From NCBI RefSeq assembly GCF_025526975.1, contig NW_026515669.1, forward strand, positions 2,108,001-2,155,284: a DNA stretch of 47,284 nucleotides, read 5' to 3'. Shown one piece after another: positions 811-44,105 of the stretch (its first letter is position 1; each line of letters begins with the position of its first letter). A program made the translations under genes and the position numbers. The notes beneath the pieces are model-generated. The model saw nothing but the letters and a program-made list of their open reading frames with translations, searched no databases and was not told where the DNA came from. Source of the DNA: Fimicolochytrium jonesii (lineage: Eukaryota).

Positions 811-1398
811 CTACAAGGCAAGGTTGACTACATTTGTACCCCGATCCAAGATGCTGTGAGCGCTTCTGGGTTTCAAGTGCAAACGGCATGGGCAGCTCCA
901 ATCACAAGGAGTCTCCCCATCCATGGCACAGTTGCCCATCAGCCAGTGGCATACCCGGTCATCCGAATCGCCCGCGTAATAAAACACCGAGGTGGCTTCC
1001 GGTGTCATGCACACCTCCCACCACGTCTCCTGGGGAACTCCCTCGTCCAACAACGTCACATCCGTGGTTGTCTCCACAATTAGCCCACAGTCATCCCGGA
1101 TGAGATATGTTTTCATCGACAACATTTTCTTGTCTGTGATGGGTATCGCAACTTTGAAGGCTTGTTGAGATCGTGTAGACGTTAAGGGCGACCTACTATC
1201 GGACGTAGTGATCGAGAAGTTGATATCCTTGACTCGGGCACGTCTTGTGAGGTGGTGACTGACAACAGCAGATGCCTTCTTGAAAAGCTCGCGACTGATA
1301 TCGGTTCTTCCTTGTATCAGGAGGAACTGGGGAAGGTCGTCCCACGATAGACGGTCAAAATACTTGTTCGAGATCTCTTGGGGAAAGGAGGTGGGCAT
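811..1398 (-). CDS. F-box-like N-terminus protein with C-terminal HWLxGxC...CDWxCPCRxHLKP motif (family 1, copy a)
   Basis: 195-aa intronless ORF. N-terminus FPQEISNKYFDRL resembles an F-box start. C-terminus CHWLMGNCAMDGETPCDWSCPCRLHLKPRSA aligns by eye with KHWLWGACALSESRDELCDWRCPCRDHLKPASA in 19252..20073. Confidence 0.65.
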   Translation of the reverse strand: MPTSFPQEISNKYFDRLSWDDLPQFLLIQGRTDISRELFKKASAVVSHHLTRRARVKDINFSITTSDSRSPLTSTRSQQAFKVAIPITDKKMLSMKTYLIRDDCGLIVETTTDVTLLDEGVPQETWWEVCMTPEATSVFYYAGDSDDRVCHWLMGNCAMDGETPCDWSCPCRLHLKPRSAHSILDRGTNVVNLAL

Positions 1399-3915
1399 TG
1401 TGGGTATCGTGAGGAGTGTGAAGTTTGCGGCTGTTCAAGATTGTGGGCAACCGAAGGGTGAAGGCCGACGTTGGGTTGGTCCCGGGAGAATGTTTGTGTA
1501 TGCAGCCAGCCCCAGGATGGTGGAACCAGAGACTGGTATATATATATGTACCTGCACCGTAGATTTGTCTTTCGGCCGTACCATGTCGCAGGACGGGGCT
1601 TGAGATCTCGGTTGCTCATGCTCACTTTATTGGCGTGACAGGAGATACGTCACTACCATGTGGACAAGCAAGGGTGCTCCCCGAAAGTTTTCTTGACGAG
1701 ACTTGGCATAGGACGGTTTGGTTATTCGCCGATAGCAGAAAGGGGATGGGGAATGAAGATAATGATAGTGACGGGGAGTGTAAACGGCAATTGGAAAGGG
1801 AAGGGGGGGGGGGGGTTCTGCTACGCGTCCCAAGATGATCACGAAACGCGTCCATAACAGGAGACTACGCTAAAGGGTGTAGCTCGCGGCACATTGCGGA
1901 CGATACACGCGTCAACAAGACACATTACTTTCTCCAAGCATCCAACCCGGTTGCACGCCCATTTCCCTGCGACTGCATGTTCGAAACAACGATCATCATT
2001 GATGTTTGATGTCCGGCGGACGGCACAAGCCACGGTCATTGTAGCTAGCCGGCATTGCAAGACCGGGACCCGCCCGACCACTCTCATCCCGGCTTGCGTC
2101 CGTTGGGTGTGGTCAAGAGATGCTGCACTCTGGGACTTCTGATTGAATCGTATGAACGTCCTGTATTGACGAGCGATTGGTAGGTACATGCTCGTAACTG
2201 GTACATTTGTTTTGGCACAGCGGGGACTATTTGGGTATGTTGCGGCCCCCCTGTCCACGGACGCCCCTTACGCCGTAGCTGTTTGCCAAGGGCTGTCCTG
2301 TGTTATCAAAGCGGCCCAAGTGGGGAGGAAACGAACATCGCCTCACAGGCTGGTGATTCATCCTTGCACCAGAGTCGAAGTTCTGTGTTTTGTTATGTTA
2401 CGGTGAATCCCTGCCTATCGCAACATAACATTTGCAGAGTAGCACTGGCTGTACAGATGGAGGTTAAGATATACGGTTCAGGAGGTCGTTTTCTTGTTAT
2501 GATATTATAGAGTATTTTTCATGCATACCTGCAAAGGTACAACCAGGAGCAGATCAATGTTGAGTTGAGAATCATAGTAACGTGACAGTAACTCGGCGAG
2601 GACAGCTAGCAAACCCCATTTGCTTCCAACCAGATTGGATATAGAGGAAACCGGATGTTATGATGGGTCGGTCATTAACATCTACATAACCATCATAACA
2701 TGAGAACATAAAAACACTCCGTAGCGTATCATGCATTTTCCCGTTGCTCCATCTGCTTGGGCTGTCACACCACTCACATCAGAGACAACATGGAGCCTGA
2801 CAAGGTTTATCTGTTCCGGAATATGGCAACACCATTGAGGGGCGTTATGTGATGAGGGATGCAAGATATCAGTCCCTCACCGCGTGTCACATCCGACGTT
2901 ACCTTCGACAGAGGGCCATACAAGCCCATACAGCTGGAAAAGGAGCAAACATAGTCCCGAACCTTCACCGCCATGTTCAATATCAATGCATCTCCGCCGG
3001 ATATCTTTCCAAGGCTACGACCGTCTTCCAGCCAGCTTTCCGATTTGACTCAGGAACCTATTCAGTGGACGGATGCAGTCAGATCACGTAAGTAAACCGA
3101 CCTTTGTCCCTTGCCTGCCATACAATATGACGAACGTCGCCGCTCGTGACCTCTATAGCCTCACAAGAAGCTTGAGGCTTCTAGCTTGCACGCTTTCGCA
3201 TCGACGATGAAGATTGGTCAATCGACGGCCATGCTCATTGCTGCTGCGCCAAAGGTCTTCTTTCCCACGACGACGCACTCTATCTTTTCGAGACGTTGAA
3301 ATTGGCTGCCTGGGTGTCGGTGCGTCGATAGGCATGTTGTGGCGAGAACATGGTGCTCAATTTAGCAACAGGGGTGAAATGATGCTCTGATTAGATCAAA
3401 GGAAATGAAACTTACAGGTGGAACAAGCCAAGCATAATACTACACTCGGGGCCTTGCCCTCTCCAAATCTAGACGGAACCAAACAGCGTGGTATGCGGCG
3501 TAGCTCCTTACCTGTATCAGATGTCTTTCTCTTCAGCCGGTTGCCTGATCAATTGGGTGCATTGTCCAATTGCTCAGATTTCCGATCCAGTGGTCTAACA
3601 ACCTGCTATTTTCGGCCACCACCGGAAATCGTGAAGCGCTCAATGATTTCGCGCTGTTGGTGAGAGTTGGTGAGACAGACACACTGCAGCTTTATTTGGC
3701 TCTTTCTACTTGGCTGCAAGTGCTTGAAATGCAATTACCTTTTTCAAGCTGATTTAAGGCCAGGGTTCATGGTCGCGTGTAGGCGTTGAGGACCAAAAGC
3801 AAAACCACCATTTGCAAACGTTCAAAGGCGTCCTCACCCCCGAGCGTTCGCGTTGTTCCTCTCGCACGAACGGTGTCTCTCCTGCTGTAAGCACATCCAC
3901 AGTACCGGAACCCGA

Positions 3916-5849: not shown

Positions 5850-7136
5850 ATGGCTAACACGCGCCGCAATATGCACTGTGGGACGCGTGAACGAGACAAA
5901 TCCGAGCAGCCAAGCAGCCACCTCGGTTGCTCATCCCCATTTTGCTGCAACTGCAAGCTCGGAGCTCCCCCTGGGAAATGGGACCGCGGCTGGATTAAAA
6001 CGCTGTATCGACCCGCACAAGCCGCTCGCTTGGGCACTATGCCAAGAGTGTCGATGCTCGTGTTCGCCGTACAGCACATTGCCCGCAACGCACTTCAGGA
6101 GCTGGTGCCCATCACGGACACCCTGATAGGGTGGATCGAGCATAACAAGCTCGACGACTCAGTAGAATGTAAGCTCATCCAGGAGGCGCTAATACGTGCG
6201 GTCTCCCGGGGTGGCATGGACATATACGAGCTTAGCTACGACGAGATCAGTCCGTCCGCCAGGGACCGCGCGTCCACAACGGTTCGGCGTTTGGGAATGC
6301 TCTACTGCTCTGCGCCCGATTTCTACAGCCCCAACGTCAACTCGCAGTCGACCGCATGGCTCAAACGTCGTTGGGTCGACTCCAGTCCACCGTCTATACT
6401 GGTATATCTTGTGCTACACATCGACTTTGCCTCTACCGGAGAAGCCGCGCCGGATCAAAGACGCAACCCGGCTGTGTCTGTATGCCATGATATGTGCGAG
6501 TTAATGGATCTGTATTTGGACGACCGGGCGCATGAGAGAATGTGTTACTCGTGCGTTCGACACGACCCATTGTCGATTGCGAAAACTCGTACTAGAAGGT
6601 TTCGCATCAGCAGGCTGGACCGCGGATCTTATGAGCAGCAGAATGGGAAGATATGGGAAATTCTTGGGACATATGAAGACCGGGGACCTAGAAGACTTGA
6701 ACCAACCAGCATTGTAGCGCAGTTGCATGACTGGAGGGTGTACCTGCTTGTACGGGAAGCGGACTACGCGATGTCGCGATTCAAGCCACATGCCCCAGGG
6801 TTCAACCTGGGGCACCAACCGCCCATCTGGTACAGCGAGTTTGACGACGGTTTCCAGAGCATCGAGGACGACTACAAAGCATGCGTACACAGACAGACTC
6901 TACTCAAAGCAAGTATCATCGGCAAGATTATTGACGCCATGGCCCTGACGCACCGAAACGCGCCATACCACGTTCGGGTCCCCCCTGAGTCTGTATCGGT
7001 GCTTCCCCGGTGGACACTACTAAGATACCCCCGTCCGCCAGGAGCGCGGCGCCCGCGACCTGCGACGAGGATCGCTGAAGAATTGCCCATCGACCAGCTC
7101 TTCGACATCTTCCGGGACGACGGTGGTGGACTGTGA
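5850..7136 (+). CDS. Hypothetical protein, 428 aa, Cys cluster near N-terminus
   Basis: Long uninterrupted ATG-started ORF with protein-like composition; no family recognised. Confidence 0.6.
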   Translation: MANTRRNMHCGTRERDKSEQPSSHLGCSSPFCCNCKLGAPPGKWDRGWIKTLYRPAQAARLGTMPRVSMLVFAVQHIARNALQELVPITDTLIGWIEHNKLDDSVECKLIQEALIRAVSRGGMDIYELSYDEISPSARDRASTTVRRLGMLYCSAPDFYSPNVNSQSTAWLKRRWVDSSPPSILVYLVLHIDFASTGEAAPDQRRNPAVSVCHDMCELMDLYLDDRAHERMCYSCVRHDPLSIAKTRTRRFRISRLDRGSYEQQNGKIWEILGTYEDRGPRRLEPTSIVAQLHDWRVYLLVREADYAMSRFKPHAPGFNLGHQPPIWYSEFDDGFQSIEDDYKACVHRQTLLKASIIGKIIDAMALTHRNAPYHVRVPPESVSVLPRWTLLRYPRPPGARRPRPATRIAEELPIDQLFDIFRDDGGGL

Positions 7137-7319
7137 TTGTTTAGGAATATCTGTCGCAGTTCGAGCCCGGAGATGCCTCCAGGGAACCTAGGGCGTACTA
7201 TGTATTGGTGAGATCGCAACGAAATTCTTGAGCAAGATGAGCTTGGGCACCTGCGCCGTGTTGGGGTATGGAATAGATGGAATGCGGACGATGTACTCGG
7301 CGTCCGTCCGTGAACTACC

Positions 7320-8565
7320 TTAGAGCTCGCTATGATTCCACCAACTAAAAGGATTCCATGGCTTCCCAAAGTAATTATCGTAAGTGGATCTCCAAAACCA
7401 AGGCCGAACCCAGGACACCCATCCAAACCCAAAATAGAACATGATTATATCGAAGAGAGCCGTATATACGTCTTCCCTCTTGATCCCAAGTTTCATGCCC
7501 AGTGCTTGACCCAAAAGTATCGCTTCCCGCATGAATGCTGCTCGGTCCAAGTCGGACCCGTTCCATGACCCAAAACCCATGAAATCTTTCAATGCCGAAA
7601 GCCAGATAGGCAGCAGTTTCTCATACTTTTGCATGTCGGTCAGCTTTGGGTCAGCCCGGATCTCATTTGTCTTCTTGACGAATTCAGACGTGTAGGGTTC
7701 GGGCGATTCGATGGATGTCGTCCCTCCAACCCATCGGTTGGCCCGGATACGAGTTGCCATCGATCATCCTTCCGGCAAGGCTAACGTTGTACTGCACTTC
7801 CATCGACTTAACGATCTCTGATCGAGCATTCGCGGCCGTGTGCCACGCTATCGAGTCCTGAAGACTGAATTGTCAACAAACGACGGTTTCAATTGGACAA
7901 TGGCAAGATTGCTCTCGCAGCCTTCCATTACCTCCTTTTGATTGAAAAAAACGATCGCATTCTTCCAGAATTCCTTCCCGAGTGCCTTGGTGTAGCGGTC
8001 CAACCCTTTCTGTAATCCAATGTCAAGCCTGAACGACATGAGATGATGCATCAGTTTCAAAACATCCGTCGGAAGAGACGTCGCCCACTACCCACTTATT
8101 GTTGGTTCCTCGCATCACGAAAATGAATGCGTTCACTCCGTATTGCAGACTCAACATCGTATGGGCAATGTCTGTCATGATTACGCCTTCAGGCATGTCG
8201 GTCGCTTGAACGCCAGGTGTATCGATTAGGCGAAGACATCCTTGTGCAGTTTTGAATACTTCCATCTGCGTCTCGTTCGTACAAGCCTAAATTGCCAGTC
8301 AGGACACAACCTAACATCAGGCCCAATAGGTATGGTCGCCCCTTACCTTCGCCGTATCGCCTTCGGCAAAAACATGGCTTTTCTTCTCCATTGACCAAGT
8401 TGATTTGAGTTCGTAGATCCGGTTCGCGGTGGTGGATTTCCCAACGCCGGTCGATCCGATGAGCATGAGCACTGTGGCATCGACAGTGCCATTATCGCAC
8501 TTTGCCGCGTACACTGTGACGACGTGAAGCGTGTAGAATACCACGATGGAGGACCAGAACTGCAT
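7320..8565 (-). CDS. AIG1/GIMAP-like P-loop GTPase with signal peptide and hydrophobic C-terminus; 4 exons, apparent frameshift near 7700
   Basis: ATG 8565 (MQFWSSIVVFYTLHVVTVYA). G1 LIGSTGVGKSTTAN, G2 ACT, G3 LIDTPG, then AFIFV and ALGKEFWKNAIVFFN. GT-AG introns at 8346-8287, ~8095-8029 and ~7931-7858. The last exon changes frame between RIART and PYTSEFVK. Confidence 0.8.
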
Positions 8566-9349
8566 GGTCGTGATAGTGGCGGCTCTAGAACCTGGGACAC
8601 GCAGCTGCGTACTCAAGGGTGTCTGTTCCTGCAGGACCACGAAGAGACCCGAATCAAGTAGATACTCGATATCCCGCAGATAGAGCCAGACTAACAGTCC
8701 TGCGATTTGCGTTGACGCTTAGCACTGGACGATGCCGTGGGCGGCTTTCCAAAAGGCTCAGGGTCTAGGAAATCCCGACACATGTCTCCTTTTTGTCCGG
8801 AGTCAATAACCAAGGAGGTCCCTGGGATGAAGCGCTATATTATGCGATACACTCCAGATGAACAGGCCACTTTGCCAGCAGCTGAGGAATGGTATCTTCC
8901 TCCGACGTATGAAAGGGGCGCTTTGGTGGCGTAAAAGCATCGGATTTTCATTGTTCGCACGGCGGGAGATGCCCTCATTGTCCGGGGACACAATGAAATT
9001 GAGACAAGAGACATCGCCGGCGTGAACCTTGTTTCCCCGCGAATTCGATGCTTCCATATCCAGCACCCCTGGAGTGCCCCTCGTCTGATGTCATTGACCC
9101 ATCGAATATATCGGATCCACACACATGCCGGTGCGATTTCGAGGCGCGGTGAGTTGCACGGAAAAGGAACCGTTTCGACTCTGAAGGATATAATTGCAAC
9201 TTATGCTGCGGGCTTCAAATAAGCTCGCATTGAGTTCACCACACGCTGGCTTCGATCACCATTGCATCGCGTGGATCGCCAAGCTCGGGGGCAAACATTG
9301 ACCCGCTACAATCCTGTCATCCAACCCTCCTCCACCCGTCACCGCCACT

Positions 9350-10708
9350 ATGCGGTTGTTCAGCTGGGGTCGGTCGTTCCTCGTGTGTTCTGGGTTCCTG
9401 CAGCCGACTAGCGTGCTTGCCGAACAGAATTCAGGCCTATCGAGGATTGTCGTGACCGGCAAGACGGGCGCTGGAGTTAGCTCCACAGCTAACGCGTTGA
9501 TGGGACGCCTTTACGCCAGCGACCAACTCTTCGCCGTTTGCTCCAGTGCGCGTGTAAGTGACTTTCCCGACGACCGTTTGACCCATCCGTATTGCTACAG
9601 CACAGCGCCGACGACTGACTCACGTTTTCTGGACCGCCGCAGTCTTGTACGACAGAGTGCCAAGTAGAGGCGTCAAAGCAGAACCGTCTCGAAATATGGG
9701 ACGTACCAGGGACGAGGAGTACGACCGTCGATTACCATGCCGCAGTTCCCGTGTGCGTCGACAAGGCTGGAGAGGACCAGGTGCATCTTGTCTTGATTGT
9801 GATCCCGGGGACCGATAACTTAAAGTGAGGATATACTTCTGCTTCAGCGCCCGAGCCCGTTCAAAGCATTTAACGCAGGACGAGGAGCTGAATATTCACG
9901 TATCTATCGAAAGGTTCGGTGAAGACCTGCACTTGTCTCTGAAGGCCATGGAGAATGCGTTTGGAAGAGCCATGTGGAGGAATGCAGCTATACTCTTCAA
10001 TTTTCGGGGGAAGAACGTATGTGGTGTCCCTTCCGTCCGCGGAGACGAGCAATGCACGTCGAAGATACTGACGTTCGATCAACCTCTCAGGACACCATTT
10101 GGGCGGCAAAGGAGGCGGGTCGGGCGTCGTTGGTGGAGGAGATTGAGTCCAAATTCAAAGCTACGCTGGAGGGCAGAGTGTTCAAGGAGTCCTTCGTCGA
10201 AGACGGTAGCGAGCGGGATATCGATTGGGCGACAACGGCTATCGAACTTTCTCGGAGTTTGTCCCCTTTCTCCATCCGACCGGAAAAGATCCGACCGGAA
10301 AAGATAGATGATTCGAAACGTTCGTCGTTGCGGGATATTCTCGACCATGCAGCTGCTTGTATAACGGACTACGGGCATAGCTTCGCTGAGAAGTTCACCA
10401 AGCGAAATCCACAGCCAGACGACGGTAATGGTGGACAAGCAACCGGCGAGAAAGCAGCCGACGGAAATCAACATGGTATTTGGGGCATGATGGAGGCACC
10501 GCAGTGGGCTTGGGAAATGATAATTCAGAACTCGCAGCTCCCTGAGTGGGTGAAAGATGTTCTGCTCGGCAACGACACGCTCCTTCACAAGGCAGTCCTA
10601 GCCTTCATCGCAATTCCGTTGTTGTTCCTCATAATTCAGGTCTATGTCGGGTCGTTCATATCCCTTATAGCCTTCCTACAGAGGTTGCGCAGGTTAGCAG
10701 GGTTTTGA
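9350..10708 (+). CDS. AIG1/GIMAP-like GTPase paralogue with signal peptide, degenerate Walker A and C-terminal TM helix; 4 exons
   Basis: IVVTGKTGAGVSSTANALMG, SCTTECQ, IWDVPG, AFGRAMWRNAAILFN. Introns 9554-9642 (GTAAGT), 9825-~9913 (GTGAGG) and 10017-10090 (GTATGT), at the same positions as in the minus-strand paralogue. TM segment AVLAFIAIPLLFLIIQVYVGSFISLIAFL. Confidence 0.8.
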
Positions 10709-12652: not shown

Positions 12653-12877
12653 ATGCCTGCCTCACGATACGACTACATTGCAACTTATGACCTCCACGGC
12701 GTAAGCAAGAGGTTCCAGGCTTCTAGCTTGCGATCTCTCGCACAGCTGCTCAAGATCAGTAGGTCCACCGCTATGCTTCTTGCTGACGGCGGTAAGTATA
12801 CAGGTAAGATGCCTATCAGGATAGAGAAGATGAGAAAAGGTGTTGTCGCTGATGGAAATGTTGTTATGCGTGAGTGA
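12653..12877 (+). CDS. Small NUMOD1-like helix-turn-helix protein (family 2, copy a)
   Basis: RYDYIATY...FQASSLRSLAQLLKISRSTAMLL...IRIEK; paralogue of 35958..36242. Confidence 0.6.
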   Translation: MPASRYDYIATYDLHGVSKRFQASSLRSLAQLLKISRSTAMLLADGGKYTGKMPIRIEKMRKGVVADGNVVMRE

Positions 12878-13260
12878 TTCTTACCACGTTGCCTTGCAGG
12901 CCCTTTGTCGCGAACAAATTCCGCATCGCATGCCAATCATCAACGTTGCAAGCAACGGGTTTGCACGACGGTTTATGTTGTCCACAGTCGCGACGTGGAT
13001 GAGGATGGAGGCGGCGATTCGATGTTACGAAGCCGCTATTCGAGTTCTCTATGACCACATCTCTCTATGTGATGTAGCGGACTGGGAACCGCATTCAGCC
13101 GACATGCCTCAATAGATAGGCTTGGGTCTTCCCTGACTGAGGTGTGAGCTTCGCGATGTCAGAATCAACGAAGAGCTCGGTTATGTTGCGGGGAGGAATC
13201 GCTCTCGGGGTACTTACGGTGGAAGAACCACTGACAAACACCGCTTGAAAATCGTTCGTC

Positions 13261-13582
13261 GAAAAGTACCATTTGAGAATACCAGATCTTGCACTGCCTG
13301 GTATCTTGGTCTGGTAACTTCGCCGCGCGAAAACATCGAAAACGACTGTCGGAAATCGATTGCGGGGATCAGCTGGTAAATCTGGTATCTTCGGAACACC
13401 TTTCCGTTCTCAAGAAGTGACAGTGAAAAATTAAAAAAACTTTCCTCCTTTCAAATCTTCAGGTCAAAATCTTGAAATGAAAGTACCAAGTTACCAGATG
13501 CTCCACCCCACTCGACGAATTTGGCACTTTCGTGTGCCGAAGTTACCAGCAAATATACCAGCCATCTGGTAATCTGGTAAGT
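13261..13582. repeat. Origin-like module copy 1: 12 TACCA(G)/CTGGTA boxes in dyad symmetry around an AT-rich core
   Basis: Forward boxes at ~13267, 13280, 13484, 13492, 13544, 13556; reverse boxes at ~13298, 13311, 13373, 13382, 13566, 13574; AT-rich stretch ~13420-13480. Confidence 0.85.
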
Positions 13583-14021
13583 TTGGTTCCCAGGTACATT
13601 TCTGACAAACTAGTGCTGGCCAACACTCACGGCGGGGATTGATGGTAAGAAATAGCCAGAATCAATCGAGACCCTGCGTCAAAGTGGCCGGAACCCTCAG
13701 CATCCATGGGGGTCTGCCGAGCAACTTGATCTCCCGGCAAGCAACACCACCTCGCACAATGGATGAGGCAGCGGAGGCAGGGAGATGTCCAGGAATTCAA
13801 CGTACCGAAGCATTTCACCTCTCTACCTTCTACGCATGCACCCTGGTGAACTAGGGGGTCCCGCTTGCGTTTGAGAAGCTTAAAAGTTGACGCGACCTAT
13901 CATTGCTTTTAGCGCCACGGACGAAGTGGCGCTTGACTCAATGCCAAGCAAGCTCGCCAGACGCCGTGCCCGAAAGCCTGGGGCGTGCGGAGGACTACTT
14001 TAACATCGTTAATGGAATGGA

Positions 14022-14342
14022 GAAAGTACCAGATGTGCATACCAGAACCCCGACAGCCCTGGTATCTTATCCGGTATCTGCTCCGCGCGAAAACATCGAA
14101 AACGAGTCGAGAATATCGATTGCGCTACATCATCTGGTAACTTGGTAACTTCCAAAGCCATTTCTGTCACAGGAAAAGAAAGTGAGAAACAACAATCTCT
14201 TCTAATGGAATAATTCTCCAGATCAAAATCTTGATATGAAGTTACCAGATTACCAGATGCTATACGGCACTCGACTTTTCTGAAGCCTTCGTGTGCCGAA
14301 ACTACCAGCAAAGATACCAGCCGTCTGGTAATCTGGTAACTT
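14022..14342. repeat. Origin-like module copy 2 (diverged direct repeat of 13261..13582) directly upstream of the primase-helicase
   Basis: Same 12 boxes in the same order and nearly the same spacing. Shared blocks ccgcgcgaaaacatcgaaaacga, atcgattgcg, tcaaaatcttga, ttcgtgtgccgaa and tctggtaatctggtaa. Confidence 0.85.
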
Positions 14343-17300
14343 CGCCTCTGCGGTTTGGATGTGGAGCAGGGCAAGGGGATCGCATACAGGACATGGGCAA
14401 CTCGAGAAAGCAAACGCGTTTGAAACTCGAGAATAAAAAACGTTGCCCAAAGTTAGGCAATGAGGACGAGAATAAGATTGCGATGACAACTGACGCATAC
14501 AAAAGCTTGGTCAGGCAGTTGCGCATGGACAAGAGCTCCCAAGCACATCAGACGCACTTCAACTTCCCGGGCTTCACTGGAATATTTGCAAGGTTGAGCG
14601 TGCCCTCTGAAAAGGAGCGCAGGGATCTCTACGACATACTCTTCGCTGTGATTCAGCAGGCAGGTGACGACATTCGGGCGAGCCCATGCGTTCTGTGTGA
14701 ACGCATACCACAAGATGGTCGATTTCGACTGTTCTTCGATTGGGATGTGAAGCTTCACGAAGTCGGAACCGATGACGATATTTTGCTGACCAACCAAACC
14801 GTCGTGCAGGGAATCAGGGACGAACTTGTTGCATCCTACGGTGCCGATTATGGAGATACGCCTCTTCTGGTCTCTGTTGGCTGCGCCCAGAAAATTCATG
14901 TCAACTGTCCCGGCATTGTCGTGACGAAAGAAGTTGCGGTCTTCCTATGTGAGCGTTTGCGGGTACGACTGATCACAAAGGCATGTCTTGCAGTGGACAA
15001 AGCAGATAAGTGTCTCGACACTTCGGTCTACAATGGTCAGGGCCTCCGCCTGCTTGGATGTCACAAGGGAAGCAGCTTGAAAGGCGCCGATGTTGAGCCA
15101 TACGAAGCGCGATTCGGCGCTGGATCCTTCCGGTACGCTTATACCCCCGTGGACAGTGTTTCACTTGAGCGGCGCGCGATTCGGAGAGAGGATCTAGACG
15201 ACTACAGCATCATTCCACAGCCTCATGCAACAGTGACCTTGCTTTGTGACGAGGCTGATGGAGACCTTCAATCGCGTAGAACTGCGAAAGTCCCCCGACA
15301 AGCATTGAAGAGGGGAGTTTCAGCCGAGGAGAGCGACATGACAGTCGATTGCAACAGCAACACAGAGGTGTTTTCAGGACCGGAGTACAGCGCGGTGCTA
15401 GGGAAAGCGACCAGCTTTTTCTCCTCCCAGTACGGGCTGACGGAGCAGTTTCACTCGATCATTGTACAAAGGGCCAAGAAAGCTCTCATTTTCAGTACGA
15501 AGAGCCGCAGGTGCTACATCAAAGGCGATACCCACGGGAGCAACAATCCCTACATCGTCATCTCCAGCTATGGGTGTCGCTTCAAGTGTCCAAGCTTTGA
15601 ATGCAGTAAGGTGCCTACCCGGAGTATCCCTCTCTGCGATCTGCCGGAAGAGCTTTCGGAAGCGTACACGAAGGTCTTCCATGTGGAATCTTCAGACAAG
15701 GGAAGGAAGGCGTTTGCGTCTGGAGTTCGCGCCCTGGCAAAAACGCTCCCGAGTATGAACTTGAAGTTCAAGCCCGCAGAGGTTCGCAAAAGTGGAGTTG
15801 GCTGGGTGTGCGTGCTGCAGGAGAACACTCACTGTCCCAGTCATCAAAAGGAGCACGACCGTCCTGAGAACTATCTCATCGCGAATTCTAACGGGTGCTT
15901 TGTCGGCTGCAGGCAAGATCCTGCGCTGTTCTTTCCGTCCGGTGCTTCTGGTCTACAGCTGCCAAGCAGTGTGACCAACGTGCTCTTCCAGTATGTAGAC
16001 AAGCGCACCTTCATTGTTGACAGCGGGACTTTAGCGGGCAACACCCCATTCATAGACGAGATCAAAGACGAGACACAGCATTTCGAGGACGCGGAGGCCA
16101 ACCGGCTGTTCAAGAGTACATTTCGAGGAACGCACTCGGCGTACGCAAAGTACCTGTACCACTCTAAAGGCGCTCTCTTTATCTGCAATCGGGAAAGACA
16201 AGCTGCTTGGCACGTGTTCAACTGCCACCGCTGGAAGTATGACCCGGGCGCGGCATACCTAATGCGCTACCTCTCGTCCGATGAGAACCTCGAACCGTAC
16301 CTCAGAGCGCGCAAGCTCTACAGTCAGGGCGACGAGGTCTCATGGAAGATTGCGTTCAACATCGACAAGCTCATTACGAGCTTCCAAAACCATGGGAGCC
16401 AGCGGGGTTTTGTTGACGAATGTGCGTTGTTTTTCAACGAACGCAGCGATGAGCTCGAACGGAACCTGGATGGGAACCGGTATCTGATCGGTTTTGCCAA
16501 TGGGGTCTTTGACTTGAGGGAGCGCATGTTTCGAAAAGGGGAGCCGAACGACTATGTCAGCATGACTGTGCATTACGAGTACGGTGAGCCAATCGAAGAA
16601 GACGTCGGCGACGTGCTCGCCTTTATCAGCAAGATTCTTCCCGATGATGCGGTTCGCCACTACGTACTCAAGCTCCTGGGATCTTGTGTTTCTGGGGATA
16701 CTCGCGACGAAAAGTTCCATGTGTGGATCGGAGGCGGAGCGAACGGCAAGAGTACGCTGCTCTCGCTTGTCGCTGCGGCTCTGGGTCAGTACGCAGCTTC
16801 GATGAAGGCCACGATGTTGACCCAAAAGTCACCTCCCGCTGACAACGCAACTCCAGGAATGAACAAAGCAGTTGGGGCACGTATGGTTGCCATGCAGGAA
16901 ACAAACTCTGGCGAAAGCGTCAACGAATCGCTTCTGAAGAGCTCACTGGGTGGTGACAAGATAGACTACCGCCCATTGTTCAAAGAGGCGCGAGAGTTCT
17001 ATCCTCATTTCAAGATGATCCTCTGCACGAACAACCCCTTGACCATAAAAGGGACGGACCACGGAATCTGGCGGAAGATCCGAATGGTTCCTTTTGAAAG
17101 CCAGTTTGTGGCCAAGATTGGCAGGATAGCCCACAAGGAAGGAAACGCATCAGTTGAGCCCATCGAACACTTGATTCAAGATGCCCAAGGAGATGCTGTG
17201 TTTGAGATGGACAAGAGCGTTAAAGACAAGATCGACGGGCCTTGGAAAGTCGCTTTCATGCACATGCTTATACGATATTATTACGTGTGGCAGGAGGAGG

Positions 17301-17611
17301 GGCTTGACGAGGTCCCGGACAAAATCGCTCAATACAATCGGGACTACAAGGAATCACAAGATATGGTTGGGAAGTTCCTAGAAGAAAAGTGTCAAATCGG
17401 TGCAGAGTACAAGGTGCACAGCAAGCCGCTATGGGAAGCTTTCTTCGACTGGCAGAAGACTGAAGCCCACCAGATCCGTCAACACGACTTCAGCCAGAAG
17501 CTCAAGCGAGATTCAAGGTTCACCTACTCCAAAGGGGTTGATATTAACGGGAAGAACAGTTGTGGTTACGCTGGGCTTCAGGTAATTGGAACTGCGGCAG
17601 CGTGTATGTGA
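14291..17611 (+). CDS. AEP primase (NCLDV/herpes/PrimPol type) - Zn fingers - D5-like SF3 helicase - C-terminal winged helix fusion
   Basis: 1106-aa intronless ORF; likely ATG 14393 or 14483. AEP motifs FRLFFDWDVK, KIHVNCPG and LDTSVY..GLRLLGCHK. Two Cys/His clusters: CYIKGDTHGSN..CRFKC..C and CPSHQKEHDR..CFVGC. D5_N LIGFANGVFDL..FRKGEPNDYVSM. Walker A GGGANGKS, Walker B VAMQE, motif C LCTN, DHGIWRKIRMVPF. C-terminus FLEEKC..LWEAFFDW..FSQKLK..GYAGLQ. Confidence 0.95.
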   Translation: MCRNYQQRYQPSGNLVTSPLRFGCGAGQGDRIQDMGNSRKQTRLKLENKKRCPKLGNEDENKIAMTTDAYKSLVRQLRMDKSSQAHQTHFNFPGFTGIFARLSVPSEKERRDLYDILFAVIQQAGDDIRASPCVLCERIPQDGRFRLFFDWDVKLHEVGTDDDILLTNQTVVQGIRDELVASYGADYGDTPLLVSVGCAQKIHVNCPGIVVTKEVAVFLCERLRVRLITKACLAVDKADKCLDTSVYNGQGLRLLGCHKGSSLKGADVEPYEARFGAGSFRYAYTPVDSVSLERRAIRREDLDDYSIIPQPHATVTLLCDEADGDLQSRRTAKVPRQALKRGVSAEESDMTVDCNSNTEVFSGPEYSAVLGKATSFFSSQYGLTEQFHSIIVQRAKKALIFSTKSRRCYIKGDTHGSNNPYIVISSYGCRFKCPSFECSKVPTRSIPLCDLPEELSEAYTKVFHVESSDKGRKAFASGVRALAKTLPSMNLKFKPAEVRKSGVGWVCVLQENTHCPSHQKEHDRPENYLIANSNGCFVGCRQDPALFFPSGASGLQLPSSVTNVLFQYVDKRTFIVDSGTLAGNTPFIDEIKDETQHFEDAEANRLFKSTFRGTHSAYAKYLYHSKGALFICNRERQAAWHVFNCHRWKYDPGAAYLMRYLSSDENLEPYLRARKLYSQGDEVSWKIAFNIDKLITSFQNHGSQRGFVDECALFFNERSDELERNLDGNRYLIGFANGVFDLRERMFRKGEPNDYVSMTVHYEYGEPIEEDVGDVLAFISKILPDDAVRHYVLKLLGSCVSGDTRDEKFHVWIGGGANGKSTLLSLVAAALGQYAASMKATMLTQKSPPADNATPGMNKAVGARMVAMQETNSGESVNESLLKSSLGGDKIDYRPLFKEAREFYPHFKMILCTNNPLTIKGTDHGIWRKIRMVPFESQFVAKIGRIAHKEGNASVEPIEHLIQDAQGDAVFEMDKSVKDKIDGPWKVAFMHMLIRYYYVWQEEGLDEVPDKIAQYNRDYKESQDMVGKFLEEKCQIGAEYKVHSKPLWEAFFDWQKTEAHQIRQHDFSQKLKRDSRFTYSKGVDINGKNSCGYAGLQVIGTAAACM

Positions 17612-19251
17612 GCAATCCTCAGTACGGACTGTTGCCGCAATGCGCCTCATGGGGCTACTTCGATGACCGACCTGAACGATGCACTGTAGAGAGAGACCTA
17701 ATGCAGTATGTTTCCAAGGGCGTGCGGAATCCCTTCAAATATGCGCGAAGCCCATACATCTCGGACCGGCGCTGACTCTCACGAGTCCACCTGCCCGTCC
17801 CATACGAGTTCACCTACCTTTGGAGAGGCATAGTCTGCAATGTGATGGCTCACCTACCGGGGCTGCGACATCCCCCTGCGTCGATGACCTTCCGAGTGAC
17901 GTCGTTTTCATTTAATTACATGTACCAGGGCTTGCGATGTAGACAAATGACTAAGGATCGGGCTGCCATGACTGCCAAGTGTGTGTCTGCATCAGGCCGC
18001 CGGAGGTCCATTGTTCATGACACGTAGGGTGAATTTCCCACCACATGCCGATTCAAGGAGGAGGCTCCGTGGGAATTGGCTACGACATCCCAGTAACGCG
18101 TTCCCATTGGCCGGTTCGGTTCCACACACGAACGACTGTCTTGTAATTAATGTGTGGGACGCGTCGAAGGAATTCCGCCAGGAGGCCGGCAATTTTCTCA
18201 CCGTTTTCGCCTATTTCTTATGCCGTTACCCTTTCTCCTCTAGCGACCAAATCCTATTACACTTCCCACCAGGGGCCCCTCTGCTACACAAATGATCCGC
18301 AGGTGCCCCTTATAGCTATTGTACATATGCTCCACGTCATAAGAAGGGGTGAGCACATGAGCTTGCAAGATCTAAGGAATACGGACGAGCAAGGTGCCAC
18401 CAAACTGTCATAATCTTGCCTTTTCCTTCAATCCTTCGAATCAGATGTCGGTCGGGAAGACTTCTGAGGCAATACTGTACAAACGCACTTTCATTCTCGA
18501 GATTGTTACATTTTCATTGTGGAGAATAGTCCGACGGGCCAGGAAGCAAACCCATTGCCAAGGTGAAGTATGCATTAACACAACTGTGCAATCCACGAAG
18601 ATGGGCCTTGCGTCGGAGGGCTCTGCCAGGGGGAGCATTCAAGAGAGCCAGCGCGTGCCAGGGGCGATAACCCATTTCCCCTTATCTCTCTCCCTCACAA
18701 CCTTCGCTACACGGTTTTCTTATTTCCATTCCGTTTTCGTCCTCATGACGCGACGTTTTTGTCCGTCCTCCACCACTTGTTCATCCTGACATCAGTATAA
18801 GGTGGGTGGGATCAGAATGGAGGGACAGGAGAGTACAAAGGGATGGTAAGAAGCTGCTTGTCCTGCGACTGCGACTGCGACCTGCGACCTAGCAAGTTGT
18901 GGGCGATCGTTTCTCAACTCGCTGGAGCTTCCCCTCCCGTACCCGTCGTGTTGGCCTCCTGTTTCTCAAGCCAAAAGTAAAGCCCATCACATCGCCCGGT
19001 CTTCTGTACGAAGGCGTCCCCTTGTACTGCTCACTGCACTGGCCCCAGTAACACCTGAAGAAAGCTCCTTCACGATCCACTGCCGGCAAGCACCTATCCA
19101 GACACCAGGTAAGCCTCACTCGCCTCGATTTGTTTCAAAATCAGCGAGGTAACCCTCCACGACCCGATACCAGCGAGGTCAATCTCCGATACGCTTTGCA
19201 CACCGATTCCCTATCAAGCCATATCAAGCCATCTTTGGTCCAGAAGCCGCA

Positions 19252-20073
19252 ATGCACGCAGCCCTGACAGTTGACCAGAGTCATGAAACACGTCGTCACA
19301 CTTCCCTGCCTGGTAACACTTTGCACATAGTTTGCTCCAGCAAATCCAGAACCCAAGCTGACGTCAATCATCATGATTTTTTGCTCATAGTGAAGATACA
19401 TATCTTGCCAATCGAAGTTCTTGAACGCATTGCGGAAGCCGCAGCGGGAGTGATGAACTACGACCAACTTGTGCTCTTCCTCTACATGATACGCACTAGC
19501 AGGCGAAACCTTATTGCTCGTCGGGCTGCGTTCATGACAGCCCGGAGCATCATTAAAGACCATCTTGGACGACGCAGCACAGCAGACAATCGGACCTACC
19601 CTCTCGATTTTGTCAGTCGGAGCTTGACCATCCCCATCGATGGTACGAACAAAGAACTCCGCATTCACTCCATGATTTGGGGTGCGAACACGTATCCGGA
19701 AATCCCTTCCAAAGAGATAGTACACTGTGGCACAGTGAAAAATCGCTGGATGCTTCAGCCGTGGACTGTGCACATCGATGAGTTTGGAGCAAGCTTGATC
19801 GAAACGGTTGACGGTCATGAGATTCCGGAAGGATGGAACGACTCTGGAGAGTACGAGGAGGGTGAAGAGGAAGATGAGGAAGATGACGAAGACGAGGAAG
19901 ATGACGACACGGAATCGGTGCATTCGGTAGCCAAACACTGGTTATGGGGCGCGTGTGCTCTGTCTGAATCTAGAGACGAGTTGTGCGATTGGCGTTGTCC
20001 TTGCCGTGATCATCTGAAGCCTGCCAGCGCACGAGCGCTTGAGCCTCGAAACACTGTACCTCACGAATTGTAA
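19252..20073 (+). CDS. F-box-like protein with acidic tract and CDWxCPCRxHLKP motif (family 1, copy b)
   Basis: ILPIEVLERIAE (F-box-like), EYEEGEEEDEEDDEDEEDDD, and a C-terminal motif shared with 811..1398. The true start is uncertain. Confidence 0.7.
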   Translation: MHAALTVDQSHETRRHTSLPGNTLHIVCSSKSRTQADVNHHDFLLIVKIHILPIEVLERIAEAAAGVMNYDQLVLFLYMIRTSRRNLIARRAAFMTARSIIKDHLGRRSTADNRTYPLDFVSRSLTIPIDGTNKELRIHSMIWGANTYPEIPSKEIVHCGTVKNRWMLQPWTVHIDEFGASLIETVDGHEIPEGWNDSGEYEEGEEEDEEDDEDEEDDDTESVHSVAKHWLWGACALSESRDELCDWRCPCRDHLKPASARALEPRNTVPHEL

Positions 20074-21347
20074 CTTCGCGCAACAGAATAGATTCAGCTC
20101 TCCATATTTTCAATTCATATACTTCATTGATTCCCCTTCATCTGTGCGGCATCATCAAACATAGTATCATTCGATGCCCCTTGCGTGGTTTAAGTTGAAG
20201 TACACCTTCAACCTTTTCTTGTACGGGCATATGCCGTTGGAATATCACCCTTTTCCCTTTTCCATCAAATGCCCGCACGAAATTGTCACGATATCACTCC
20301 TTATTCATTTGGTAGACCGTCACTGACCTGATCACCATCCGATGTGGACCTTACTCTTCCCCAAATGAGCCTGACCCGATAAGCGTCGCATAGCCGTTTA
20401 ACCTCGCGGAGGTTCTTAGCGCCAGCGTCACGCATGCTTCTCGGCTTTTGACCTGTGCTTGCCGAGGCTGTTCTATTCAACTGCTTTGCGGTGTGGGGGC
20501 GACGGTGAACGAGTCGATAGGGATGTCTAACGGGGTATGATCAAACCGGATTGTCCCCGTACACGGCAATAGAAGACGGTCATCGTCCCTGTTCCGTCCG
20601 TCTTCAGAGGCGATCTTCACTTCCGCTCTCGCCAACAGTAGCTGTGACCTCTCACTCCTTGCCGGCGATGCGAATTGGCAACCAAGCCTCTTCTTCCAGC
20701 GACGGAACACTCAGATGCATCCTGCTAAGAATAGTGTGTACCGTGGACGGTAGCACAGTACAGCGGTAGCCGCATGGCGAAGGGTATCAACCGCAAGTGA
20801 GCCGCGAGGCAGAGATGCCCAAGGGTAAGATTCTATCTCATCGGTTTTGGCACAGCTTTCAGTTCATGTCCCCACACAAGAAAGTGGAGGTGCCCCTACA
20901 CCCGCTCGAAGAAAGTCACATCGTTACAGGAGACGCTGTCTTTTGTAGCTACCAGAGCTCCAGTTCTCAAGACAAGCGAGACGTATGGACTGACGCGGGA
21001 GCAGCACTTCTATCTTTCGCTACTTCTGGCAGTTCCCGAGAACCCTTTGACAGCGCAAAAGGCCGTCTTTTTCCTTCGTACTGACAGTGTGCCGTCAATT
21101 TCCAACTGGGAGCTTGACCCATGCACCACCCAAGCGAGATTCTTTGTACCTTTCCTTTCCTCCTTCGCTTACTCATTGTTTTCCATCGGAGGGTCTCCGA
21201 GATGTGGGGTTGGATGTGGGCGGGCTTTCTCGCATCCCCGCGTCTACTATAACATGCAAAAGAAGTGCGTTCACCGCCGAATATTATATTCAAACCTGTA
21301 GCAAAAGAGATACACAACCCTCATAAGATTCAACCTCGATCAGGAGG

Positions 21348-21626
21348 ATGAATATCTATCCTCCTCCTGGATTGGGACCGTCGCCTACAGGAACGGGACC
21401 GTCGCAATTCTGGCTACGGAGCGCTCTGACTACGGCTCTTGATATACCAGGCGACCACGGTGATTTGGAAGTATTCAGTTATGTGGTCGAAAGCTATATT
21501 GGTCAACTTGCATCAACCGCAATTGGTGGCTCAAGCCTGGATCTCACAGTCAATATCTTCCGTTTGGCAGGCACATCGCAACTCTATATACCCGGCTCGA
21601 ATGCCAGTGCATTGCGAACTACTTGA
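21348..21626 (+). CDS. Unknown small protein or gene fragment (family 3, copy a)
   Basis: ALDIPGDHGDLEVFSYVVESYI..LDLTVNIF..SQLYIPGSNA matches 38094..38447. Confidence 0.5.
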   Translation: MNIYPPPGLGPSPTGTGPSQFWLRSALTTALDIPGDHGDLEVFSYVVESYIGQLASTAIGGSSLDLTVNIFRLAGTSQLYIPGSNASALRTT

Positions 21627-22949
21627 TGGCCCGCGCCAAAAGATTATTTCCCGCAGCATCGCTGAAGATAACGAAGCTTCCCTTGCATACTATCCTTGAA
21701 GTTGGTCGGACGCGGAGCCGAGGGTGAAATCTAGTAACCCCATATACCTCTTCACGTCTCAGCATCTCAGCACCTGTCTTTCGCACATGCTTTCACTTTC
21801 CGACCATCCAAGTGGCCGTTGTTTTATTCCATAGCTTCAGCACATGATTGTCATTAGCGTTTGCTGGTTTTGCGGCGTTGGCTTGGGCATTTGTCTGTGG
21901 TATGCCTCGTAAATCGTCCCTCTTGTTCGAAGAAGGTTCGATCGAAAATCCTGACCAGGAACCAGAAGCGAAGCTCGGGCAATCCCAAGTGCCAATCATC
22001 CTCCCAGTCTTGCTCCCAAAAATGGACCGAAGTTACGTTGTCCCCTTGATTCTGCGTCGATGATGCGCGGAGTATGCTACAATGGGCGCCCTCGCTCATG
22101 CATGTCGGCACGGAGCCAAACAGCGTTGGACCGCCGGTGTGGCTACGTATCTAGAATATCAACTATCGCGCGTAGGACAGGTTCCGCTTTGTATTCTTTT
22201 TGATTAAACCCGTTTTGACACAGCAAAGGAGCGTGGCCAAGCTGTGGTGGTGGCATGAAGACACTCCCAACGTGCATTTCGTCGCCACCGTACATTAAAG
22301 ATCTATCCGGTCGATTGGCTGCTCGGAGCCACATCTGCAGACTTTCCATCGGCTGCTCCGCTCCTCCTACTTTCCATCGGCAAAGTATGTACGACCAAGG
22401 AAAGAATATTCCCCTGTTGTTATATTCCGCTGGGGCATACGGTCCTATTGGTCCCGAGCTATATTCTTACGACTGCCGGTAACGCTTGGGTCGTCGACGC
22501 GGCAGCCCCTTGCTCAAGTCGCACAACATGGGTCAATGATGTGAGTGAGGCCCGGCATTCGCATCCAGAAAGTACTCCTTGCATAAAGCAAGAGAAATTG
22601 CGCTCTTGATAAAAGATCCATGACTCGGACCAGCTAACCCCGCTACTGCATCGGTAAACACATCATTTTCTCGTTGTTGCACATTGGTTCTATTCTCATT
22701 TTCTCCTTCTAGCTCCGAGCGGGCTCAAGATGGTCAGCCGGGTTCCCTTAAACATGAGCAAACGGAGTGCAGCTCTCAAAGATGCAAACCCCAGAAGCAC
22801 TCAGCGGTGCCACTCAATATCACACGTTTGTCATAATCTGCCACCAGATTCCCCGTCATTTTGAGTATGGTGTGGGGGATGGAACGATCAGCCTTCCCCA
22901 AAAAGAAAAGCCTATATACAAGTAGCTTGGTCAGAGCCGGGCCTCAAGA

Positions 22950-23564
22950 ATGTTCATTTATCATACAAGCATATGGCTTCTTCTCCTGATAGCACTATGT
23001 GTCCTATGGGCTGCGCCTCCTGCACTTGCATGGGAATGGCACAAGGGCTGGAACGAGACCGGCCAGCGGAAAAGTCCCGAAGAGGACCCCAAACCTATAG
23101 CTGGAGCTGGCATCCAGCATGACTTCAACGCGATATCTCGCCGCATTCCAGGCAGTAATGCCGTGCCTGTTTTCCGTCGCTTACTTTGTGGTATGAGACC
23201 AGGCTCCGATGGGGAAGGCGCTATGTACATATTCAGGAATGGTCTGCAACATAGATACTCGATGGATGAGGACCGCTGGAAAGTGGGATGCACCAGCCTC
23301 AAGGTGGGAGTGAAGAAACGCTTGGCGCAATGGGGAAGACAGTGTGGCCGCTCGCCTGTGCTGATCGGTGAATGGAAGGTCAAGCACCACAGATTATGTG
23401 AGAACTTGATACATTCCGAGCTGAAGTTGAAGGGTAAGTGGCTGGGAAACGTCCAATGTGAGTGCAGAACCCAGAAAGGCCATTGCGAGTGGTTCCGGGG
23501 CCCGTTAGCTGACCTTCAGGAAACCATCGGATTCTGGGTGAACTACGTGAATCAACACTATTGA
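22950..23564 (+). CDS. T5orf172/MUG113 (GIY-YIG superfamily) domain protein with N-terminal signal-like peptide
   Basis: GAMYIF...WKVGCT...KRLAQWGRQC...ENLIHSELK...CECRTQKGHCEWF. N-terminus IWLLLLIALCVLWAAPPALA. TATA-like ctatataca at ~22912. Confidence 0.85.
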   Translation: MFIYHTSIWLLLLIALCVLWAAPPALAWEWHKGWNETGQRKSPEEDPKPIAGAGIQHDFNAISRRIPGSNAVPVFRRLLCGMRPGSDGEGAMYIFRNGLQHRYSMDEDRWKVGCTSLKVGVKKRLAQWGRQCGRSPVLIGEWKVKHHRLCENLIHSELKLKGKWLGNVQCECRTQKGHCEWFRGPLADLQETIGFWVNYVNQHY

Positions 23565-34912: not shown

Positions 34913-35111
34913 AATGGGAGCCTCGGCGGCGGGGGCCGTCCACGTAGCAACCGCGCTTGCAGTTCTTTTTATTTCTGAAAGATATAGGTAACAAACAAGG
35001 CGAGATACAGTAAGTTGATCAAATGGACCGTCCAGTCAAAGATATGCTTCGAGCATACATCAGCACTCACACATCTGTGCAAAAGTTGCATGCTGCCGTC
35101 AGAGCCAACCA

Positions 35112-35401
35112 TGCTGGAAGATCGGTTGCACCGGAGCTGGAGTTGGAATCAGTAAGCGCCTACAACAATGGGCAAAAAGTTGCGGCCATGCTCCCGAGCT
35201 GATGGTCAATGGAGAGTCAAGAGGCACAGATTTTGCAAGAACCTCATTCACACCGAGCTGAAGGCCCAAGGTAAATGGTTGGGAAAAATCAGCTGTGGTT
35301 GCAGAACATCAAAAAAACACTGTGAGTGGTTCTCTGGGACCCTACAAGACATGCTGGAAGCCATTTCGTTCTGGGTGCAATATGTGAACCGACATCACTA
35401 A
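35112..35401 (+). pseudogene. Frameshifted T5orf172/GIY-YIG paralogue of 22950..23564
   Basis: WKIGCTGAGVGISKRLQQWAKSCGHAPEL, frameshift near 35200, then GQWRVKRHRFCKNLIHTELKAQGKWLG..HCEWF..FWVQYVNRHH. Confidence 0.85.
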
Positions 35402-35957: not shown

Positions 35958-36242
35958 ATGAAACAGAGATACTCCTATCACGCGAGCCTCATATGGGCAG
36001 GATGCTCTCCGAGCTCTGTGGAGGCGGAGAGTCTCAGGGCATTGTCGAAAGTGCTTGGCCTATCCGTGAATACTATCATACGCATCCTCAAAGAAGGCGA
36101 CCACTGCAGGACAGGCAAACGTGTTACCATTGAGCGGCGCCCACAAACAGATGCAGCCCTGGTTCTGTCCCTTCAATACCACTGGTCTCCAGGCCACCAG
36201 AAGATCCAACAGCTATCGCATCACATAGCTCTGACGCACTAG
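35958..36242 (+). CDS. Small NUMOD1-like HTH protein (family 2, copy b)
   Basis: RYSYHASL...EAESLRALSKVLGLSVNTIIRIL...VTIER aligns with 12653..12877. Confidence 0.6.
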   Translation: MKQRYSYHASLIWAGCSPSSVEAESLRALSKVLGLSVNTIIRILKEGDHCRTGKRVTIERRPQTDAALVLSLQYHWSPGHQKIQQLSHHIALTH

Positions 36243-38093: not shown

Positions 38094-38447
38094 TCACACG
38101 GCACGACCAACGCCGAGGACTACATGGGTGGGAAGCCTTGTGATATGCAATCTTGCTGCAGGAAAGCTGTGGGAAACGCATGATACCAGGGTATCAGCCA
38201 CAGCATCGGCGTTTGGACCGGGTATATGAAGCTCGGATCTATTCTCCATATAGAACAGGTTGACAGTTATGTCAAGGTGTGTCATCCCTGTTGCGAGGAC
38301 ACCCAACAGCCGAACGTAGCATTCAACCATGAAGGTGAACATTTCCGGGTCCCCATGGTGTCCTGCTATAGTCAAAGCTGCACTCAAAGAGTTGCAGGAC
38401 TGGCGTCCCTCTTGAGAGTTGCCGCTGAAGCTGTTCATATTGTTCAT
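38094..38447 (-). CDS. Unknown small protein (family 3, copy b)
   Basis: ALTIAGHHGDPEMFTFMVECYV..LDITVNLF..SELHIPGPNA; paralogue of 21348..21626. Confidence 0.55.
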   Translation of the reverse strand: MNNMNSFSGNSQEGRQSCNSLSAALTIAGHHGDPEMFTFMVECYVRLLGVLATGMTHLDITVNLFYMENRSELHIPGPNADAVADTLVSCVSHSFPAARLHITRLPTHVVLGVGRAV

Positions 38448-39589: not shown

Positions 39590-39690
39590 GGACAAGACAT
39601 TGCGTGTAAACATGCCTACCTCGTCTTGCAAAAGCCTTTCCATCCAGGCCTTCACAAAGAAGAAGCTTTATGAGATCATACCTGCAGCTT

Positions 39691-39722
<32 letters not shown>

Positions 39723-44040: not shown

Positions 44041-44105
44041 GGGTTAGGGTTAGGGTTAGGGTTAGGGTTAGGGTTAGGGTTAGGGTTAGGGTTAGGGTTA
44101 GGGTT
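44041..44105 (+). repeat. Telomeric array 3
   Basis: About 11 TTAGGG units. Confidence 0.98.

Follow-up and report, generated by a model that had tools for sequence, protein, structure and literature searches.

Two putative iteron-type replication origins beside a virus-type primase-helicase gene in the chytrid Fimicolochytrium jonesii

Introduction

The satellite phage P4 has two iteron-bearing cis sites, ori1 and crr, and a Toprim primase. SaPI origins, as set out in the available portions of two reports, span ~300 bp and carry 6-12 iterons, set in opposition on the two sides of an AT-rich centre that measures 102 bp in SaPI5, with inverted iterons inside each arm, bound by the Rep winged helix (bioRxiv 10.64898/2026.10.17.759575; PMC9371898). 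The same accounts describe PriRep5 hexamers that read the iterons with the wing, one tail swinging across to an inverted iteron, and two such hexamers are thought to load (bioRxiv 10.64898/2026.10.17.759575; PMC9371898).

For the eukaryotic DNA viruses, the accessible parts of the literature liken the tail of ASFV C962R to the P4 OBD and to Rfx1, describe DNA binding by that tail as unclear, and give the winged helix of mpox E5 no origin-binding role (PMC10516667, PMC12137749). Giant-virus genes, D5-like helicases among them, are documented in zoosporic fungi, again going by the text available (PMC13533422, PMC9894930).

Here we describe a 47,284-nt stretch of the Fimicolochytrium jonesii genome (contig NW_026515669.1, positions 2,108,001 to 2,155,284; the ‘window’), in which two 12-box modules stand upstream of an intact primase-helicase gene (Table 1). 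We consider it likely that the modules are iteron-type origins for the adjacent enzyme, left by an integrated virus-derived replicon. The design, a SaPI-type iteron origin, is already known; here it sits in a eukaryotic chromosome. As in SaPI/PICI PriRep5 and its ori, insofar as the reports above describe them, each module spans ~300 bp (320 bp) and sets 12 boxes, six per side (6+6), around an AT-rich centre of ~100 bp (96 nt), with inverted boxes within the arms (FFRRRR on the left and FFFFRR on the right, at least two opposed per side, F being TACCAG and R its reverse complement CTGGTA), and adjoins a gene for a fused primase-SF3 helicase (SF3/MCM-like, with Pfam D5_N and DUF5906 matches) with a C-terminal winged helix, predicted here. 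The differences are several: the modules lie at what is likely a eukaryotic chromosome end, are duplicated, use a different box and stand upstream of the gene, whereas a SaPI-type origin lies directly downstream of rep (a position found in a metagenomic relative, L001, but in neither window copy); the window enzyme is nearer to giant-virus D5/C962R; and no integrase, att sites or helper-phage genes were found here. In place of a bacterial island with integrase and att sites, we find TTAGGG arrays, chytrid relatives and no integrase in the ORFs scanned.

With P4 alpha, the window enzyme shares a TIGR01613 (P4-family) match and, by prediction, an RFX-like origin-binding tail on a primase-helicase; it differs in its AEP primase, in having two full copies of one module beside it where P4 has an origin and an accessory site, and in its eukaryotic host. 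ASFV C962R and poxvirus D5/E5 have the same domain order, but the available text of the sources cited above does not report a sequence-specific origin for these enzymes (PMC10516667, PMC12137749), whereas here a candidate cognate site adjoins the gene. As in the remnants of Mycodnaviridae and other giant viruses, a virus-type gene lies on a chytrid chromosome, D5-like helicase-primases occurring in both; the differences are that the ORFs scanned in the window matched no capsid, PolB or packaging ATPase, and that the text available describes no origin for those remnants (PMC13533422). Our literature search, with most subscription papers outside its coverage, returned no paper on this module, nor any on an iteron origin next to a D5-like gene of a fungus.

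Results

Architecture of the two modules

Each copy holds ten exact boxes and two with one mismatch, in the order FF RR RR / FF FF RR. An earlier note, made from the sequence alone, had proposed a TACCAG/CTGGTA module in two copies of 12 boxes, and this is borne out in order and count, although two boxes per copy are mismatched and the site is longer than TACCAG, the consensus over the 24 boxes reading about AA(G/A)(T/A)TACCAG(A). Exact TACCAG/CTGGTA matches in the window number 38 against 18 expected, a count reached by 0/100 shuffles, and 20 of the 38 lie inside the modules; the densest cluster holds 10 in 330 nt, where 200 order-3 Markov simulations gave no more than 4. A general module detector, run over 39.5 kb of the window, recovered only copies 1 and 2. 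The end of copy 2 is 140 nt from the helicase ATG, and copy 1 lies ~900 nt upstream of the same gene.

Table 1. Coordinates of the module, gene and flanking features within the window
Feature	Position	Strand	Description
Module copy 1, candidate iteron origin	13263..13583	.	12 boxes FFRRRR/FFFFRR
Copy 1 box starts	13267, 13280, 13298, 13311, 13373, 13382, 13484, 13492, 13544, 13556, 13566, 13574		
Box-free AT-rich centre, copy 1	13388..13483	.	Candidate unwinding element; 66% AT
Module copy 2, candidate iteron origin	14023..14342	.	12 boxes; 75% identity with copy 1
Copy 2 box starts	14027, 14040, 14059, 14071, 14134, 14142, 14243, 14251, 14303, 14315, 14325, 14333		
Box-free AT-rich centre, copy 2	14148..14242	.	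66% AT
9-bp direct repeat flanking copy 1	left 13231..13239, right 13602-13610	+	Possible insertion scar or chance
74-aa ORF	12653..12877	+	Probably small helix-turn-helix protein; helicase-linked in two genera
Primase-helicase	14483..17611	+	Intact single ORF, 1042 aa; AEP (C962R-like), D5_N, SF3 ATPase
C-terminal winged helix, predicted	17300..17608	+	RFX / ASFV C962R tail / P4 origin-binding type; candidate box reader

Start-to-start spacings are near-equal, at 13,18,13,62,9,102,8,52,12,10,8 in copy 1 and 13,19,12,63,8,101,8,52,12,10,8 in copy 2. The view that boxes and geometry were kept while the spacers diverged holds in its first part, conservation being higher in the boxes (68/72 positions) than in the spacers (174/249; Fisher p 4e-6, in a test that is partly circular because the boxes were chosen by their match); the spacers are nonetheless still 70% identical, and between the window copies they align at z 16 with exact boxes masked. 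The 150-nt flanks score no higher than shuffles, homology ending sharply at the module edges.

The AT-rich centre, put at ~60 nt in the earlier note, is indeed AT-rich (66% against 49% window-wide), but its box-free length is ~96 nt. Both centres are among the least stable DNA in 39.5 kb, their least stable 60-mers ranking third and fourth among the least stable local maxima. The proposed self-reverse-complementarity stands for the box order, which is mirror-symmetric; the spacing is inexact, with dyad centres that drift by ~12 nt. After masking of exact boxes the arms are still self-complementary (z 8.1 and 5.2), which suggests that the unit probably arose by inverted duplication or else contains further symmetric sites.

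The single strands of the modules fold well (z -6.2 and -7.5); a conserved hairpin was nevertheless dismissed, copies 1 and 2 adopting different folds, and an Rfam search gave only three sub-threshold microRNA matches.

The adjacent primase-helicase and its relatives

The gene is unbroken, with a weak AEP (C962R-type) match and further matches to D5_N, the SF3 ATPase and Pfam DUF5906; it contains what we take to be the primase-helicase motifs (DxD, H, D, Walker A, Walker B, motif C and an Arg-finger-like motif) and has no CpG depletion (o/e 0.97). Its best relatives of solved structure are ASFV C962R (E 1.6e-18) and poxvirus D5/E5. The nearest named relatives are from chytrids, namely Geranomyces (71% identity) and Thoreauomyces (66% over 56% of the length); a Fimicolochytrium paralogue is 35% identical, and more Geranomyces cluster members also exist. 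In a FastTree phylogeny of 175 helicase cores, the chytrid relatives and the L001 protein form one clade (support 0.999), with P0006 outside it. P0006, a named chytrid paralogue from outside the window, shares its AEP N-terminus with the enzyme described here, while its helicase half and tail have diverged, a combination suggesting that domains were exchanged and that P0006 may read a different box.

Scanning metagenomes for relatives of the enzyme yielded two loci out of 477 candidates, L001 and L002, which were counted as one element given the repeat families common to both. The L001 enzyme is 47% identical to that of the window, and the contig carries 12 TACCA boxes, the first of them 68 nt past the stop codon of the enzyme gene, so that the module is downstream. 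Read in reverse, the L001 spacing is 12,20,12,64,8,100,8,64,12,9,8, to be set beside that of copy 2 given above; box orientations agree with copy 2 at 10/12 positions, the outermost pair alone being flipped, and the tight FF-RR end of the module points to the gene in both window and L001. Once exact boxes are masked, the spacers of window and L001 match near chance (z 1.1-2.6).

L001 also encodes genes with GNAT, dynamin-like, GIY-YIG and AAA_33 matches and one tRNA, and on our reading appears to be a gene-dense, virus-like contig. Two further features of L001 may be recorded. A second symmetric array (L001:13277-13425), 75 nt past the TACCA module, consists of paired AAAGGGCC words, two forward and then two reverse pairs, and possibly provides sites for another protein; at L001:14104-14574 there are four tandem tRNA-like copies with one common end, one of which is called as tRNA-Glu.

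A third instance comes from Geranomyces, where P0100, a mis-called model of the orthologue, extends through DNA upstream of the true helicase start; the module was here read from the protein letters of P0100, not from DNA. Its residues 134-200 can be matched to the window modules translated from either strand, and the N-terminus is compatible with boxes spaced 12,10,8, the last of which stands 135 nt before the true ATG, as against 150 in the window. P0100 has 15 box-compatible sites against a shuffle mean of 7.1, and 0/1000 shuffles reach 15. A second module-end signature lies just before, and this suggests that Geranomyces, too, may have two module copies. The P0100 model also includes a copy of the 74-aa ORF, 67% identical and placed downstream of the helicase.

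A predicted winged helix as candidate reader of the boxes

A structure model of the last 103 residues has winged-helix topology (pLDDT 80.7). Foldseek places RFX5, ASFV PrimPol and RFX1 at the top of its ranking, and VIA-align gives Z 9.1 for RFX5, 7.2 for RFX1 and 6.1 for the P4 origin-binding domain (1ka8; rmsd 4.2, 77 aligned); SaPI PriRep5 is not among the 50 structural matches listed. The predicted fold is clear, whereas the matches do not point to one function, since scores like that of the P4 domain are also reached by winged helices of a general kind, cullin tails among them. The Pfam Pox_D5 profile matches the L001 homologue, and between the window and L001 enzymes the wing is identical at 13/22 positions and the body of the domain at 25/68. 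The box resembles an RFX X-box half site (by comparison with the validated X-boxes of PMC3245922 Table 1), which fits the RFX-like fold of the tail; the full X-box, a 14-15-bp palindrome with halves 2-3 nt apart, is absent from both modules, which have half-site-like boxes only.

The layout in viral contigs and at D5 loci

A DNA-only pattern of the inner core (two inner box pairs and an 80-110-nt gap) was run on viral contigs and found 24 loci in 19 groups. At thirteen of these (9 groups) a gene for a primase, a helicase or a Rep protein lies no more than ~460 nt away, where at most 1.9 such loci were expected, and in 12 of the 13 the pattern is just downstream of the gene, L024 being the only one with it upstream; at the other 11/24 no such gene was recognised nearby. 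The enzymes, typed by Pfam in 32/53 nearby ORFs and then in 16 more, are of VapE, DUF5906, DUF927-Cch, NrS-1-like or Toprim-AAA_25 type, and the D5-group profile matched at none of the 24 loci. Since the enzyme types vary and none belongs to this D5 group, a word in common is no proof of a single type of reader. A permuted control pattern gave 4 loci, one of them beside a helicase with its own box array; taken together, these scans indicate that, in the contigs searched, the layout marks replication genes and that the TACCA word, though often the one used, is not the only one.

Viral contigs gave no match to the exact FF-RR pattern in its full form, and a search with alignment A3 found no viral-contig relative. 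A looser pattern built on the outer block gave 16 loci in 5 groups, of which six, all from one group, follow an AAA_25 ATPase and one is near an HTH_36 protein, while three groups are without a recognised replication gene. Among 80 giant-virus-type D5 loci none had such a module near the gene, with strict and relaxed detectors whose sensitivity was 2/20 and 5-6/20, respectively, in a comparison set labelled P4-like, and whose controls gave 0 (strict) and 0-6 per 60 resamples (relaxed). A loose third screen flagged 5/80 of these loci and a TACCA count flagged L105, but none held up: three (L105, L054, L057) proved to be repeats of tandem or coding type, and in the remaining three the boxes stand in an order that does not fit.

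Several arrays stand apart. Clear TACCA arrays around AT-rich centres at L021:4383-4731, at L015:421-545 and near position 4501 of L006 and L014 have no recognised replication gene near them and are candidate origins; those of L006 and L014 adjoin a GP88-family gene. At L028 and L030, which match the control pattern, intergenic arrays of inverted AT-rich words lie between two unannotated genes, with no recognised helicase.

Chromosomal setting and neighbouring ORFs

TTAGGG arrays extend from 39.7 kb to the end of the window, the first telomere array lying ~22 kb from the primase-helicase, and the locus is likely near the end of a chromosome of the fungus. Within 39690-47284, telomere-associated units of two kinds, 1.1-2.6 kb long and variously truncated, are interleaved with these arrays, and for a 215-aa ORF at 41057-41704 (-) the sole match is a weak one, to a zinc ribbon.

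Of the 246 ORFs of at least 68 aa that were listed, 20 + 149 were scanned against Pfam, an approach that spliced or Pfam-divergent genes could escape; capsid, PolB, packaging ATPase, integrase and transposase had no match among them, while AIG1-like GTPase, RING and T5orf172 pieces did. Window scans found no long inverted repeat pair, no element borders and, in the ORFs scanned, no mobility gene. Of the hallmarks of a Polinton-like virus, the capsid, packaging ATPase and integrase or recombinase thus had no Pfam match and the long terminal inverted repeats no counterpart, although proteins of such viruses frequently diverge beyond the reach of Pfam. The 74-aa ORF has weak paralogues near 3109-3296 and 35958-36242, one of the three having weak HTH matches. 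Near-length searches with it found no homologue, and there is none in 22.8 kb of L001; the nearest Atlas clusters of the three small ORFs are viral, at 0.89-0.90 (0.90 for the 74-aa ORF, to be taken as a lead only), with NUMOD1-like ones lower.

Other neighbours are listed for completeness. Two paralogous orphan ORFs at 811-1434 (-) and 19153-20073 (+) (25% identity, E 1e-8) flank the helicase region and both end in a Cys/His-rich motif; no family was found for them, nor any homologue in a near-length search with 19252-20073. For the ORF at 5850-7136 the Atlas was uninformative. There are also a T5orf172 gene and its frameshifted second copy (22950-23564 and 35019-35398), a subtelomeric paralogue pair (21327-21724 and 38094-38489) and pieces of divergent AIG1-type GTPases (7300-10700).

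Discussion

The earlier note had left a choice between a bidirectional origin and recombination or terminal binding sites of the kind found at transposon ends, and the reading as an origin is now well supported: the module accompanies the primase-helicase in L001 and in Geranomyces P0100, its layout is that of published SaPI origins, and the core pattern finds primase, helicase and Rep neighbours in viral contigs. The layout, the AT-rich centre, the intact gene and the L001 parallel can be seen directly, and to these a structure model adds the predicted winged-helix tail. The modules are not members of the SaPI family, although by analogy they may work like a SaPI origin, and firing in both directions from a centrally unwound site would be expected on the same grounds.

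Borrowing from SaPI PriRep5, we propose a speculative model in which the six winged-helix tails of one hexamer would read the six boxes of one arm, the inverted pair included. Two such hexamers would bend and melt the AT-rich centre, loading themselves without a loader, and would then separate, each moving 3' to 5', with the AEP domain priming. Elongation would fall to a host polymerase, the ORFs scanned in the window having yielded none of family B.

A different use for the boxes, as template sites for the AEP primase, alone or besides serving as winged-helix sites, would place the inner reverse boxes on the strands that template the outward leading strands. There is a precedent of sorts, in that the NrS-1 primase-polymerase, according to the available text, starts at 5'-TTTGGTTA-3', a preference proposed to set the start of replication, and the reverse box is loosely similar (PMC8718748); two of the viral loci (L007 and L011), moreover, lie behind NrS-1-like genes. 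We nevertheless regard this as very improbable: the AEP regions of the window and L001 enzymes are identical at only 33/181 positions, as compared with 13/22 in the wing, yet both loci have TACCA boxes, and 12 double-stranded boxes at fixed spacing would seem better suited to the six tails of a hexamer than to priming.

Each module might instead be a small MITE-like element, mobile but not autonomous, or consist of two transposon ends whose subterminal boxes bind a transposase. The sharp module edges, the arms that are self-complementary beyond the boxes and the well-folding single strands would all agree with this, as would the 9-bp repeat around copy 1, which was equalled by 2/200 and 0/150 random windows and lends a slight probability to movement of the whole module. 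Against it, the best terminal 25-nt inverted match is 16-17/25 and is composed of boxes; the 9-bp repeat is not accompanied by terminal inverted repeats; flanking repeats are absent from copy 2 (of at least 8) and from L001 (of at least 6); the two copies fold into different structures; the ORFs scanned include no transposase; and the module neighbours the same gene in L001 as well as in the Geranomyces model. Mobility of this kind is thus very improbable, and the transposon-end branch of the earlier note, with no terminal inverted repeat beyond the boxes and no target-site duplication at copy 2 or L001, is left with the copy 1 repeat as a weak hint.

We give very little weight to a reading in which the modules have no origin function and serve solely as transcriptional operators, bound by the helicase tail (autoregulation), by the 74-aa protein or by an RFX factor of the host: copy 2 does overlap the likely promoter region of the helicase gene, the box is like an RFX X-box half site (PMC3245922 Table 1) and linkage of the 74-aa ORF with the helicase is seen in two genera, but neither module has the full X-box palindrome, the L001 module is 3' of its gene on a contig whose 22.8 kb gave no homologue of the 74-aa ORF, and a fixed ~100-nt AT-rich gap is a requirement of an origin. 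Autoregulation may come on top of origin function.

Returning to the modules as origins, we would suggest tentatively, and as an unlikely rather than an expected outcome, that soil chytrids have an active, capsid-less eukaryotic counterpart of the phage satellites, or else a domesticated pair of helicase and origin, which fires independently of ORC/MCM and over-replicates or circularises a gene-poor chromosome end, with a D5/C962R-type winged helix reading a 12-box origin.

Whether the D5/C962R tails of eukaryotic DNA viruses recognise origins is a question left open in the available text of the sources on these enzymes (PMC10516667, PMC12137749), and the locus provides a matched test pair for it: an intact enzyme, a 12-box site in two natural variants, and a distant relative in L001 that keeps both word and spacing. 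Should the modules prove silent, they would still mark a replicon of viral derivation that has stayed intact in chytrids of more than one genus. Should they fire, a fungal chromosome would have an origin that is initiator-independent, and chytrid vectors could possibly be given a replicon in two parts.
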